Positions 54,496-59,158 are shown, counted from the stretch's first letter. The stretch is DNA of 64,000 nucleotides from a virus (IMGVR_UViG_3300020048_000073:28419-92418); one strand, 5' to 3'. Program-made: numbers and translations. Notes: generated from the letters alone by a model not told the origin.

Positions 54496-54616
54496 ATATT
54501 GAAACACACTACCGGAACCGTGACTAGCGGATTTACATTTTACCCAGTTTCAACAGGCGGGGAAGGCAGCTAGTCACGCTATCGCTTCTCTACCAAGAAT
54601 TAATGTGCTTCAATAT
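54496..54616 (-). ncRNA. Conserved-stem RNA cassette A
   Basis: ATATTGAAGCACATT...AGTGTGTTTCAATAT 15-bp stem (2 G-U), inner CGTGACTAGC/GCTAGTCACG. Confidence 0.6.
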
Positions 54617-54650
54617 AGCGACCCTTCCCAGGGTGCCGTATCCTACCTGA

Positions 54651-54663
54651 ATTGTTAAGGAGC
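54651..54663 (-). promoter_or_regulatory. boxA-like antitermination site GCTCCTTAACAAT
   Basis: One mismatch to rrn boxA GCTCTTTAACAAT. Lies ~15 nt after the expected +1 of a consensus promoter. Confidence 0.5.
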
Positions 54664-54684
54664 TGTATTACTTAATATACAACT

Positions 54685-54713
54685 ATTATACAGGAATATT
54701 GATTTTATGTCAA
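54685..54713 (-). promoter_or_regulatory. Consensus sigma70 promoter TTGACA-N17-TATAAT
   Basis: Exact consensus. Heads the Cys-Asp-Glu-Gly tRNA block. Confidence 0.85.
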
Positions 54714-54734
54714 CCAATATTTTTCAGTTAAAAC

Positions 54735-54771
54735 TGGTGGAGTATCCTGGGATTGAATCAGGCATGTCTAA
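54735..54771 (-). pseudogene. 3' fragment of tRNA-Tyr (direct repeat of 56015-56051)
   Basis: 34/37 identity, covering part of the variable arm, T-arm, acceptor 3' strand and CCA. Confidence 0.85.
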
Positions 54772-54776
54772 CATTA

Positions 54777-54818
54777 TCACTCTAGCCTTGCGAAGTCAAT
54801 ATCGATATCTGCGCTCAT
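54777..54818 (-). pseudogene. Truncated ORF start MSADIDIDFARLE* (DnaE-like DIDIDF motif)
   Basis: ATGA-coupled to the upstream gene, preceded by AAGGA, stops after 13 codons next to the tRNA-Tyr repeat. Confidence 0.5.
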
Positions 54819-55675
54819 GATTTCTTTTCCTTAATATAATCTATGACCTCTGAAGTGTGTGTAAAGTATTGATTCTGCCAAAACGGCATTTCTATATTAT
54901 ATGTTTTTTCTAATTGTGCGTTTAGCCATGCTTCCTGAACAAGGTTTATTTTAGGAATTTTTTCTAATTTATTTTGTAAGATCATATCAAAAATACTTTG
55001 CATTTCTGTATCAACATTTATGTATTGGTTGTTTTTGATAAAATTATTATAAAAGTATCTAAGATCATTGTCGTCATATTTGACCTTTATGTCAAAAAAG
55101 TTAATGATGCGAGATATACCGTTTACAAAATGTTCAAAATTATAAAACCAATCAAATTCAAATTCTATATATTGTACGTCTGGCTGATAATGCAACTTGC
55201 TTAGGTGTACCATAAGTCCGGTTTTTTCTGGTTCTAGAAATCCAAATTTAAAAAACTCACGCAAAATATGTCTAGGTACCGATGGGGTTGTCGCATAATC
55301 TATTAACTGTGCCTTGTAGCTATTGTATATAATAGGTAGCATCTCTTCAAAACACGTATTTGAAAGTTTTTCTACAGTATTGTTTTCTAAAGTATCAACG
55401 TCAATATCTGTTCCACTTGCTCTTCTCATAAGTAAACACGTCAATTTTACAAGGTTATATGTTTGAAAATTTATTTTTATAACTTTTTTTAATTTCTTCT
55501 GTTTGTTATACACCGAATAATGATCAGATTGAAACATTGTCTTTGAAAAGTTTATGAATTTGTGTGCGGCTCCCGTATTATCAAATGGTAGCTCCTTTGT
55601 ACCGTTGACTAGGTTATTTAATACTTTTTGCAAAAAGTTGCCGTGTGATCCTCCAACAAAATCAATATAAATCAT
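54815..55675 (-). CDS. Hypothetical protein, possibly P-loop/sulfotransferase-like (start MIYIDF)
   Basis: ATG 1 nt after the upstream stop. IDFVGGSHGNFL N-terminal loop. Very AT-rich. Confidence 0.6.
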   Translation of the reverse strand: MIYIDFVGGSHGNFLQKVLNNLVNGTKELPFDNTGAAHKFINFSKTMFQSDHYSVYNKQKKLKKVIKINFQTYNLVKLTCLLMRRASGTDIDVDTLENNTVEKLSNTCFEEMLPIIYNSYKAQLIDYATTPSVPRHILREFFKFGFLEPEKTGLMVHLSKLHYQPDVQYIEFEFDWFYNFEHFVNGISRIINFFDIKVKYDDNDLRYFYNNFIKNNQYINVDTEMQSIFDMILQNKLEKIPKINLVQEAWLNAQLEKTYNIEMPFWQNQYFTHTSEVIDYIKEKKS

Positions 55676-55676
55676 A

Positions 55677-55919
55677 CTACCAACCTGCTTTCTGTAAAAT
55701 TTCCTGGGCATATTTCTGATCTTCTGGATAATCTTTAAATTTTTTCTGCCAGTGATCAGAGTCAATATACTGCCATATCATAGCAACTTGTTCTGAACTA
55801 AGTTCAGATAAAAACTTTTGTCCGCTTTCACAGTTATAGATAACCCATGGACTAATGCGACCATATGCAATAGCATGTAATTTCAAATGACTTTTTCTCT
55901 CATTTCTTGTCAGAGACAT
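55677..55919 (-). CDS. 80-aa ORF, probably the C-terminal fragment of a larger phage protein
   Basis: GRISPWVIYNCESGQKFL...ILQKAGW. Fragment status is inferred. Confidence 0.45.
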   Translation of the reverse strand: MSLTRNERKSHLKLHAIAYGRISPWVIYNCESGQKFLSELSSEQVAMIWQYIDSDHWQKKFKDYPEDQKYAQEILQKAGW

Positions 55920-55982
55920 ACATTCGATAATGTTAATATTTTTTATATATGTATTTATCTCAACACAAAGATATTTTTATTT

Positions 55983-56008
55983 TAGTGTTACCATTACACT
56001 ACAGCTCA
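55983..56008 (-). pseudogene. 5' fragment of tRNA-Gln
   Basis: 55983-56020 matches 57187-57224 at 37/38 nt and stops after the D-arm. Confidence 0.8.
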
Positions 56009-56014
56009 ACAGAT

Positions 56015-56098
56015 TGGTGGAGTATCCTAGGATCGAACCAGGCATGTCTAAGACGGCGGATTTACAGTCCACTGCATCACCATTGATGCTTCTACTCC
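56015..56098 (-). tRNA. tRNA-Tyr(GTA)
   Basis: Loop CTGTAAA, long variable arm, CCA. Confidence 0.92.
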
Positions 56099-56103
56099 AA
56101 ATT

Positions 56104-56182
56104 TGGTCTCGGTAGAAGGATTCGAACCTTCGCTTTCCTGCTCCCAAAGCAGGCGGATTAAACCAGACTTTCCCACACCGAG
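56104..56182 (-). tRNA. tRNA-Pro(TGG)
   Basis: Loop TTTGGGA, C1-G72, A73-CCA. Confidence 0.93.
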
Positions 56183-56197
56183 TTTAAGTGTTGTTCT

Positions 56198-57655: not shown

Positions 57656-57729
57656 TGGTACCCAGTAAAGGTAATGCTCCTCTGTCGCACGATTATCAGT
57701 CGTGTGCTCTACTTTTGAGCTAACTGGGT
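57656..57729 (-). tRNA. tRNA-Ile(GAT) with non-canonical D and T loops
   Basis: Loop CTGATAA, T-loop AGCATTA, D-loop AAAAGTA, CCA. Confidence 0.85.
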
Positions 57730-57731
57730 GA

Positions 57732-57805
57732 TGGTGCCTCGTGATGGAATCGAACCACCGCAACCACCGTGTAAGGATGGAGTTCTACCATTAAACTAAC
57801 GAGGC
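57732..57805 (-). tRNA. tRNA-Val(TAC)
   Basis: Loop CTTACAC, CCA. Confidence 0.94.
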
Positions 57806-57806
57806 A

Positions 57807-57882
57807 TGGTAGAAATGACTGGACTCGAACCAGTGATAATCTCCGTATGAAGGAGGTGCATTAGCCACTATGCTACATTTCT
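57807..57882 (-). tRNA. tRNA-Met(CAT), elongator type (Ile2 not excluded)
   Basis: Loop TTCATAC, paired 1-72, CCA. Confidence 0.88.
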
Positions 57883-57886
57883 ATTA

Positions 57887-57962
57887 TGGCGTCCCCCCAC
57901 GGTGACGATCCGCGCTCTTCGGTTTTGGAGACCGATGTTCTGCCAACATGAACTAGGGAGAC
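57887..57962 (-). tRNA. tRNA-Trp(CCA)
   Basis: Loop CTCCAAA, G73-CCA, atypical T-loop ATCGTCA. Confidence 0.9.
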
Positions 57963-57968
57963 ATTGTT

Positions 57969-58044
57969 TGGAGCGGGCGAAGAGGCTCGAACTCTCGACA
58001 TCTACCTTGGCAAGGTAGTGCTCTACCAGCTGAGCTACGCCCGC
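57969..58044 (-). tRNA. tRNA-Gly(GCC)
   Basis: Loop TTGCCAA, U73-CCA. Confidence 0.96.
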
Positions 58045-58050
58045 ATTGTT

Positions 58051-58124
58051 TGGTGGACAGTGAGAGAATCGAACTCTCAATACCGGCTTGCAAAGCCAGT
58101 GTTATCCCATTTAACTAACCGCCC
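58051..58124 (-). tRNA. tRNA-Ala(TGC)
   Basis: Loop TTTGCAA, G3-U70, CCA. Confidence 0.95.
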
Positions 58125-58132
58125 GTATTAGT

Positions 58133-58235
58133 TGGTGGTTATCCCACCAGATGCCCGTAGCCTGCCACGTCTGACAGGTTCACTGGTAAATCCCAGCAAT
58201 ACCGTTAGTCTCTAGGAGACCTAGAGGGCCGGACA
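58133..58235 (-). ncRNA. Candidate four-way-junction RNA plus 3' hairpin ending in CCA
   Basis: TGTCCG/CGGGCA closes CTCTAGG/CCTAGAG, GCTGG/CCAGT and CCTGTCA/TGGCAGG. Followed by TGGTGG-GATAA-CCACCA. Confidence 0.55.
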
Positions 58236-58243
58236 ATTCTGTA

Positions 58244-58951
58244 CTAGTTTTTAAAATCAAGTTTGTCTAATAAAAACTGGCTAAATTTTTCATGCCCATC
58301 TTCTAGTAAATGACCAGTTGATGTTGTGGCAATATTGTTTGTCTCTGCGAATTTAGGAATACTAAATTTATGCAGGTCTATGATATTGCTATCAGTGCCG
58401 CATATTTTAAACATTTCTAAAGATTTTAAATAATTCCATTGAGCATTGCCCCAATTTTCGTTATTTGCTCCTGAAAAAATAAGATAATCTATGTTGTACA
58501 TTTTTAATGTGTTTACAAACATAAACAAATTCGTGTAAAAATGGGTTAATTGTCTGTTTATGTTTAAATCAAGTAAAATAGCCTTGGCAGTGCTCCACAT
58601 ATTGTCACTGAGTAAAAAATCTGCGGTGATTAATTTTGATTCAGGATAATGATTTAAATCTGGAATCTTTGACAGAATTTTTTGGTCATTGTCTTCGTAC
58701 CATATTTCGTCTCGTGTTACAAAACTTATTCCTATGATAGCCAGTATTTCATTATCAGGTGATGCTTGTCTTAATTTAATCAGTGATTCAATAGAAGTTC
58801 TAAATATTCTATTATTGTTAGATCCAATAACGGCTTGATTTATTACAAATTGTTGCAGTCTTTTTCGTAAAAAATCACTGTAGACTTGTTGGTTGGTCAT
58901 TCTAGCAGAATAACTGTCACCGTTGACATAAATGTGGTCATATTTTTTCAT
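58244..58951 (-). CDS. SGNH/GDSL-type hydrolase-like protein (start MKKYDH)
   Basis: YVNGDSY, NQAVIGSNN, GH near the C-terminus. The ORF-track extension overlaps tRNA-Ser. Confidence 0.65.
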   Translation of the reverse strand: MKKYDHIYVNGDSYSARMTNQQVYSDFLRKRLQQFVINQAVIGSNNNRIFRTSIESLIKLRQASPDNEILAIIGISFVTRDEIWYEDNDQKILSKIPDLNHYPESKLITADFLLSDNMWSTAKAILLDLNINRQLTHFYTNLFMFVNTLKMYNIDYLIFSGANNENWGNAQWNYLKSLEMFKICGTDSNIIDLHKFSIPKFAETNNIATTSTGHLLEDGHEKFSQFLLDKLDFKN

Positions 58952-58965
58952 AAAATTATTTATTT

Positions 58966-59053
58966 TGGCGGAGAGTATAGGAGTCGAACCTATCCACCAG
59001 TCACCCAGTGACGGTTTAGCAAACCGTTGCCTTAACCGCTCGGCCAACTCTCC
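58966..59053 (-). tRNA. tRNA-Ser(GCT)
   Basis: Loop TTGCTAA, long variable arm, G73-CCA. Confidence 0.95.
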
Positions 59054-59078
59054 AAATATTTACACACTCTTTAGAATG

Positions 59079-59158
59079 TGTGTAATAAAGCACACTACCA
59101 CTCACGGATTAGGCAAGTGTGGCACGCCATCATTTATTCAAGTGTGCTTTATTACACA
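59079..59158 (-). ncRNA. Conserved-stem RNA cassette C
   Basis: TGTGTAATAAAGCACACT...AGTGTGCTTTATTACACA perfect 18-bp stem in the operon leader. Confidence 0.55.

Follow-up and report, generated by a model that had tools for sequence, protein, structure and literature searches.

Spacers between the tRNA genes of an uncultured T4-like giant phage hold hairpins that share one conserved closing stem around unrelated interiors, and these hairpins make up a real RNA family that we found described nowhere in Rfam or in the literature. The DNA analyzed here (the window) comprises 64,000 nucleotides and makes up the 3'-terminal part of a 92-kb virus record from IMG/VR (IMGVR_UViG_3300020048_000073:28419-92418; CheckV completeness, 27%). 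It contains 23 tRNA genes, every one of them on the minus strand, and three minus-strand hairpins, designated elements A, B, and C, which are co-oriented with all 23 of these genes. The stem is under selection at the RNA level and is the constant, and possibly the functional, part of the hairpin, with an interior (cargo) that is swappable. Tentatively, we read the hairpin as a processing stalk in long tRNA precursors. The three elements are as follows.

Element A, 54493..54619 (core 54496-54616), minus strand: 18-19-bp stem around a folded 91-nt interior (54511-54601)
Element B, 57292..57372 (core 57295-57369), minus strand: stem of ACC plus 15 plus 3 bp, with a 45-nt interior (57310-57354)
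Element C, 59079..59158, minus strand: divergent member with an 18-bp perfect stem and a 44-nt interior (59097-59140)

Selection on a shared closing stem

The arms of element A (5' arm, 54602-54616 plus GCU at 54617-54619; 3' arm, 54496-54510 plus GGU at 54493-54495) form 15 core pairs, 2 of which are G-U on the minus strand, and the GGU coincides with bases 1 to 3 of tRNA-Cys. In element B, which corresponds to inverted repeat I5 (21-nt arms, 90% complementary), arms 57355-57369 and 57295-57309 pair with one A-C mismatch (stem position 6) and one U-G pair (position 14), and the stem joins the ACCA end of tRNA-Lys(UUU) to the leader and GGU of tRNA-Phe. The arms of element C (59141-59158 and 59079-59096; inverted repeat I8, 18 nt, 100% complementary) differ from the family consensus by compensatory changes, and this element sits in the leader of an operon whose first gene is tRNA-Ser(GCU). 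None of 200 shuffles folded as well as element A (−39.8 kcal/mol; z, −4.0), element B (z, −4.2), or element C (z, −4.9). One identical 15-mer forms the 3' arm in both A and B and stops one base before the +1 of tRNA-Cys (54495) and tRNA-Phe (57294), respectively, and the first base of element B (57369) is the terminal A of tRNA-Lys(UUU). The interiors of A, B, and C were unrelated by BLAST clustering, each being a singleton cluster. Coordinates, folds, and clustering thus agree with what a sequence-only reading of the window had described, namely, a shared closing helix around unrelated structured interiors in the tRNA operons, identical 3' arms of A and B next to the +1 of a tRNA, a start of B on the A of the upstream CCA, and deviations that are mostly G-U on the minus strand. 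Its figure of 15 to 18 bp for the helices holds for the arms; the family helix is longer, at 18 to 19 bp (21 to 22 bp in B, where the first 3 interior bases pair too), because the 3 bases outside each arm also pair (ACC with GGU in B and GCU with GGU in A).

An exact 15-mer scan of viral contigs drew at least 120 loci (the motif-drawn sample), 108 of which carry tRNAs, usually 10 to 30. Together with this genome, these loci hold at least 244 hairpins with both arms and with interiors of 23 to 217 nt (median, 55 nt), 242 of which were oriented by the nearest tRNA. A second sample comprised 80 loci picked via a YkuK-like protein neighbor instead of the RNA (the protein-drawn sample); model matches were found in 52 of these loci, nearly all on the strand of the protein and the tRNAs, and a pattern search yielded 78 distinct copies. 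Four near-complete relatives (92 to 100% complete, 320 to 400 kb) have 2 to 3 copies each, within ~10 kb per genome. The genes neighboring the hairpins are T4 type (RNase H, RegA, clamp loader, and dCMP deaminase), and the hairpins are small non-tRNA RNA elements within the tRNA cluster of a T4-type phage.

Among the 242 oriented copies, G-U pairs numbered 342 on the tRNA-sense strand versus 55 on the opposite strand, the selection rule for this count being strand neutral, and in the independent protein-drawn sample they numbered 71 versus 37. An alignment of 89 copies with differing interiors contained double changes in 16 of the 19 stem pairs (134 cells), compared with 18 to 36 cells in slid controls, and 0 of 500 shuffles reached any of five covariation measures. 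The bases flanking the arms were conserved in the motif-drawn sample (ACC 5' and GGU 3'; 68 to 88%), even where no adjacent tRNA was detected, and these outer pairs covaried within one orthologous group (ACC/GGT, AGC/GCT, and GTT/AAC). Matches between arms averaged 14.67 of 15 for the partner across the interior, 13.57 for the next arm across the tRNA, and 13.80 for a random arm; since the arms fit the partner across the interior best, the hairpin is the selected topology. Pairing of leader and trailer arms around the tRNA was rejected as an alternative topology, as pairing there was no better than random. Many stem positions were near invariant across more than 150 interior types, and a U-G wobble was favored at stem position 14 (79%); finding the copies via the arm sequence inflates the percentages of pairing and of sequence conservation, an ascertainment bias of which the shuffle, slide, and strand comparisons are free. 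Selection on RNA rather than on DNA, proposed earlier from the G-U deviations of the window, is thus upheld by the strand counts and by the compensatory changes. At stem position 6, an A-C mismatch on the sense strand was present in 36 of 217 copies (e.g., B, L166, and L051) and was kept between orthologues with differing interiors; it may be a deliberate helix defect.

Covariance model R1, which was built without element A, scored A at 55.8 bits on the minus strand (E = 8e-12) versus 24.7 bits on the plus strand and B at 59.7 versus 41.6 bits; element C, which was in the training set, scored 40.9 bits. A, B, and C were the sole matches of this model in the window, each scoring 12 to 31 bits higher on the minus strand. 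Three other spacers (54054-54176, 54253-54337, and 58125-58243) did not belong to the family.

An Rfam (release 15) scan of the region at permissive thresholds returned tRNA matches alone; even with E values up to 1 allowed, none of the three elements was matched, and a scan of the elements in four related loci returned nothing, the weak plastid, YrlA, and sX4 matches overlapping tRNAs. The sequence-only reading had recognized no described family, and that view stands. BLAST of two elements against 50,697 GenBank phage records gave no real match, which is a weak test with arms of only 18 nt. The 18-mer had 10 matches in 596 Gb of prokaryote genomes versus ~17 expected by chance (our estimate), several of them on short contigs of freshwater metagenome-assembled genomes that are probably phage. 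Searches of viral contigs with exact interior words gave no match for A and one chance match for B (in L141, without tRNA or stem). A literature search found no description of a conserved-stem hairpin family in tRNA operons.

Constant stems and exchanged interiors

The 242 interiors of the motif-drawn sample fell into 158 BLAST clusters. At the Lys-Phe junction occupied by element B, the corresponding tRNAs of L051 are 88 to 90% identical to those of the window and the arms are 100% identical, including the A-C mismatch, whereas the interiors are ~45% identical, which is the random level; in L113, the same junction is an empty 4-nt spacer. The orthologue of element A in L144 has kept the arms and the leader between promoter and hairpin around an unrelated interior (56 nt versus 91 nt). 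In the counterpart of element C (L143:343-428), likewise upstream of tRNA-Ser(GCU), the arms differ by two double changes and the interior is unrelated. We compared 67 copy pairs in which both copies follow one tRNA species and the two tRNAs are at least 80% identical; for the 46 pairs at 80 to 95% tRNA identity, identity was 0.44 to 0.51 for the interiors (random, 0.44) and 0.85 to 0.92 for the arms. Cargo-free hairpins of 18 to 20 bp with 3- to 8-nt loops exactly fill Lys-His, Ser-Ser, and Lys-Arg junctions, and L166:6080-6145 is such a cargo-free member. In 6 of the 17 interior clusters that could be tested, a single interior type followed more than one kind of tRNA.

The sequence-only reading had placed the weight on the cargo and had regarded the tRNA operon as a modular small-RNA expression system, an emphasis that is weakened by orthologues that keep their arms around random interiors and by the existence of bare hairpins. 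At least some of the cargo may nevertheless be functional itself, since some interiors are conserved across contigs. The T-loop motif GGTTCGA occurred in 14 of the 158 interior types (0.7 expected), and in ~10 types, a T arm lay no more than ~10 nt from the 3' arm, a tRNA-like placement.

Some loci contain arrays of hairpins (L048:6000-6700, L043:11190-12250, and L052:170-530), in which the stretches between the hairpins run GGU...ACC and have closing stems of their own; one such stretch (L048:6051-6109) gave a weak tRNA match (34.8 bits). In these arrays, the hairpins seem to take turns with units of a second structured class, which may be tRNA-like.

The hairpin as a candidate processing stalk

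The features surrounding the three elements in the window are listed below.

tRNA-Cys, 54418..54495, minus strand: +1 directly after the 3' arm of A
Sigma-70-type consensus promoter, 54685..54713, minus strand: 12/12 matches, 17-nt spacer, ~69 nt upstream of A
YkuK-like protein, 56485..56958, minus strand: PF04308 (E = 2.8e-17), RNase H-like fold, 157 amino acids, inside the tRNA array
tRNA-Phe, 57219..57294, minus strand: +1 directly after the 3' arm of B; bases 1 to 3 (GGU) lengthen the stem
tRNA-Lys(UUU), 57369..57442, minus strand: 3' ACCA paired within the stem of B
Spacer between C and tRNA-Ser, 59054..59078, minus strand: direct repeat family D7, with a small 6-7-bp hairpin
Sigma-70-type promoter, 59252..59280, minus strand: 11/12 matches, ~94 nt upstream of C

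With promoters upstream of both, A and C each come first among the structured elements of a tRNA transcript, two transcripts in all, whereas B lies within one. The spacer at 59054-59078 ends with a degenerate copy of the 3' arm (3 mismatches to the 15-mer) abutting the +1 of tRNA-Ser. Promoter enrichment beside the elements was not convincing (18% versus 11% at random positions). A terminator scan of the window listed none at A, B, or C, and an intrinsic terminator was rejected, the stem being A+U rich and followed by GGU rather than G+C rich and followed by a U run. Among the 242 oriented copies, the first base of 86 is the A of an encoded CCA, and the last base of 24 is position −1 of a tRNA. 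The stems lie between mature stable RNAs on the tRNA strand, which is the position of a processing stalk, with co-transcription presumed.

The position relative to individual tRNAs was uneven. In the motif-drawn sample, three tRNA species were the upstream neighbor of tRNA-abutting copies more often than their share of all tRNAs.

Lys(UUU): 24% of abutting copies versus 3.9% of all tRNAs
Glu(UUC): 20% of abutting copies versus 5.5% of all tRNAs
Gln(UUG): 8% of abutting copies versus 3.6% of all tRNAs

In the protein-drawn sample, tRNA-Lys(UUU) was upstream in 27 of 36 abutting copies versus 3.6% of tRNAs, and element B follows this preference; these counts ignore shared ancestry and are a lead, not a result.

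We favor, with slightly less than even confidence, the reading that the hairpin is a processing stalk, which would mark a cut in a long tRNA precursor and would be cut by a host double-strand RNase. The hairpins would be transcribed together with the tRNAs from host-type promoters in long precursors, and the helix would tie the ACCA of the tRNA before it, or else an equivalent ACC, to the GGU with which the next unit begins. A stable hairpin at a 3' end is expected to block 3' exonucleases; such a hairpin on the tRNA end would stop the exonucleases that trim 3' trailers, so that the 3' end of the upstream tRNA would be freed only by an endonuclease cut in the helix. What is left of the tail would be shortened to CCA, with RNase P cutting the downstream tRNA. 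The loop would tolerate insertions, i.e., fast-changing and swappable inserts, some of them tRNA-like, which may be released as stem-capped small RNAs with or without jobs of their own; such tolerance would explain why some hairpins are bare and why inserts turn over so fast. In favor of a processing stalk, the hairpins were shown to be co-oriented with the tRNAs and selected on the RNA strand, the stem was shown to covary and to stay constant while the cargo turns over, and cargo-free members exist.

Host RNase III would be the most likely enzyme. No RNase III, dsRBD, TROVE/Ro60, or Y1 transposase was found in this contig and the four near-complete relatives, in searches with positive controls; with no phage enzyme apparent, a host factor is the simplest candidate reader of the stem. 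Substrates of Escherichia coli RNase III have an ideal length of 22 bp and a minimum of ~11 bp from the cut, and cellular substrates are mostly shorter than ~20 bp (PMC3867540). The stem, at 18 to 22 bp, fits this size range, as the sequence-only reading had anticipated.

Several observations sit less easily with a processing stalk. The conservation of the stem sequence exceeds what known RNase III sites require, a part of which is ascertainment. A generic role in processing would not predict so strong a preference for tRNA-Lys(UUU), and certain interiors recur in conserved form in as many as 12 contigs, with a few compensatory changes. The proximal and distal box rules, which apply to E. coli RNase III, may not be those of the host, and are defined relative to a known cut site (PMC1540722), could not be mapped onto the stem.

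Among known systems, the RNase III stalks of the 16S and 23S rRNA stems and of T7 early-transcript sites such as R1.1 resemble the hairpins in placing a helix of about two turns between stable RNAs of a polycistronic precursor and in having an interior or loop that is dispensable for recognition. Unlike these stalks, the hairpin family reuses one conserved helix sequence many times per genome and across many phages, and its members often begin on the CCA end of a tRNA and enclose variable inserts instead of a mature RNA. YrlA (Rfam RF02553), which acts with Ro60, likewise combines a long terminal stem as a handle with a tRNA-imitating module; in contrast, no Ro60/TROVE gene is present in this contig or the four near-complete relatives, the YrlA matches were weak (23 to 28 bits versus a gathering score of 69) and overlapped true tRNAs, and the hairpin stem presumably lacks the Ro-type bulged helix of Y RNAs. 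REP/BIME elements and the Correia/NEMIS elements of Neisseria are inverted repeats that recur in transcribed intergenic regions and fold into hairpins as RNA, those of Correia elements being substrates of RNase III. Such elements have interiors that are homologous, target duplications, and a linked transposase, none of which was found for the hairpin family. The RNAC and RNAD of T4 (species 1 and 2; rnaC and rnaD) are small stable RNAs beside the T4 tRNA genes with unassigned roles (PMC3014915, PMC9697503). RNAC has a T arm beside its terminal stem, as does a subset of the hairpin interiors, but RNAC and RNAD are single copies with no repeated handle, and model R1 gave no match over the T4 tRNA region that holds rnaC and rnaD (at most 7.3 bits; E > 1). 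The hairpin family is best filed with the processing stalks, as a variant with a predicted function.

Less probable, in our judgment, is that the stem serves as a sequence-specific handle for a dedicated phage or host RNA-binding protein, much as Ro60 holds Y RNAs, with interiors that act as tRNA mimics, decoys, or regulators on a shared adaptor. Recognition of this kind would fit the near-invariant stem positions and the preferred U-G wobble at position 14, and effector interiors would fit the excess of GGTTCGA motifs, the T arms near the 3' arm, the recurrence of an interior type behind different tRNAs, and the compensatory changes in some interiors conserved across contigs. The near invariance stems in part from the way in which the copies were found, however, cargo-free members exist, and interiors that are random at 80 to 95% tRNA identity are more in keeping with swapping or a weak constraint than with effectors that are conserved. 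As to the protein, the commonest neighbor of the hairpins is the YkuK-like RNase H-fold protein (30 of 121 loci of the motif-drawn sample plus this genome), and a hairpin is present in 52 of the 80 loci picked via YkuK. Hairpins nevertheless occur without a YkuK gene in two of the four near-complete relatives; the protein is therefore not an obligate partner, and the earlier proposal of a phage protein such as this nuclease as the partner of the stem is weakened on this point. A search for TROVE gave 0 matches in five records (four of them 92 to 100% complete), with control matches in Deinococcus, and no dsRBD protein was seen in the four relatives. We consider it unlikely that the hairpin stays uncut and acts as a folding insulator or block to 3' exonucleases, which would prevent misfolding of neighboring tRNAs, stabilize a precursor or leader, or delay the maturation of a tRNA whose CCA is sequestered. 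That the stem begins exactly at the CCA end and pairs with it, that strong promoters closely precede A and C in their operon leaders, that cargo-free forms make do with the helix alone, and that no phage double-strand RNase was found would all agree with such a role. A tRNA with a stable 60- to 120-nt hairpin on its CCA end is not chargeable, though, so the 86 tRNA-abutting copies (of 242) require some cut by an endonuclease; moreover, most tRNA junctions in these phages are spacers of 3 to 10 nt, so insulation is not generally required.

The preference for particular tRNAs bears on a further reading. Host anticodon nucleases target tRNAs Lys(UUU), Glu(UUC), and Gln(UUG), and the stem could be a dedicated device on the 3' ends of these tRNAs, above all of Lys(UUU), that gates their maturation or protects them, with the loop as an exchange site for decoy or tRNA-mimic RNAs directed against tRNA-cutting defenses; we regard this as quite unlikely. 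An element that acts at the DNA level, i.e., a palindrome like a miniature inverted-repeat transposable element (MITE) or REP, or a cassette recombining at its arms, with incidental RNA effects, is highly improbable. It could account for the same interior type behind different tRNAs and for occupied and empty versions of one junction; its ATAT...ATAT ends could hide a TA or AT target duplication, and the tRNA islands of these phages commonly contain HNH homing endonucleases. Unlike MITE copies, however, the hairpins have at least 158 unrelated interiors, the arms covary as a helix, and the strand bias is strong and tied to tRNA direction. None of 240 copies was flanked by a direct repeat of at least 3 nt, which speaks against a MITE with target duplications, and PF01797 (Y1/RAYT transposase) had no match in the five records, including the four near-complete relatives. 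Recombination at the arms may explain the swapping of cargo without being the function of the hairpin.

Other features of the tRNA island and significance

Beside the tRNA island, the window encodes a calcineurin-like phosphoesterase (52785-53381) and a dual-specificity phosphatase-like protein (53397-53927), families that recur near hairpins in 29 and 9 of the 121 loci, respectively. Duplicated tRNA fragments (54735-54771/56015-56051, 92%; 55983-56039/57187-57243, 88%) bracket a 1.2-kb segment with open reading frames (ORFs) at 54815-55765 and 55677-55919, which looks like an insertion or rearrangement within the tRNA array; a weak tRNA-like match (29.1 bits) lies at 56018-56098. The 119-nt minus-strand spacer at 58125-58243, between ORF 58244-59047 and tRNA-Ala, is predicted to fold at −47.3 kcal/mol (z, −3.9); it matched neither the stem model nor Rfam and may encode another small RNA. 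Within the 130-nt minus-strand spacer at 57443-57572, which separates tRNA-Lys from tRNA-Arg(UCG), a short Lys-, Arg-, and His-rich ORF continues into tRNA-Lys without a stop codon. In the tRNA island of a related phage, a group I intron match was found at L043:13185-13378 (RF00028; 53.4 bits, above the gathering score), and ARAGORN reported permuted tmRNA-like genes a few kilobases from hairpins at L142:6137-6577, L144:4975-5545, and L164:1245-1610.

Annotations of phage tRNA islands usually show tRNAs separated by "junk" spacers. In uncultured T4-like phages, among them giants of 320 to 400 kb, a good part of this DNA consists of hundreds of copies of a single RNA device under strong selection, and the stem model gives annotators a means to find a recurrent element that is missing from Rfam. 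If the hairpin is a processing signal, it would show how phages mature 20 to 30 tRNAs from long transcripts with host enzymes, and it would provide a portable stem for RNA release. If the inserts are functional, they would constitute a large untapped set of phage small RNAs, and the strong link to tRNA-Lys(UUU), a target of anticodon-nuclease defenses, would deserve attention.

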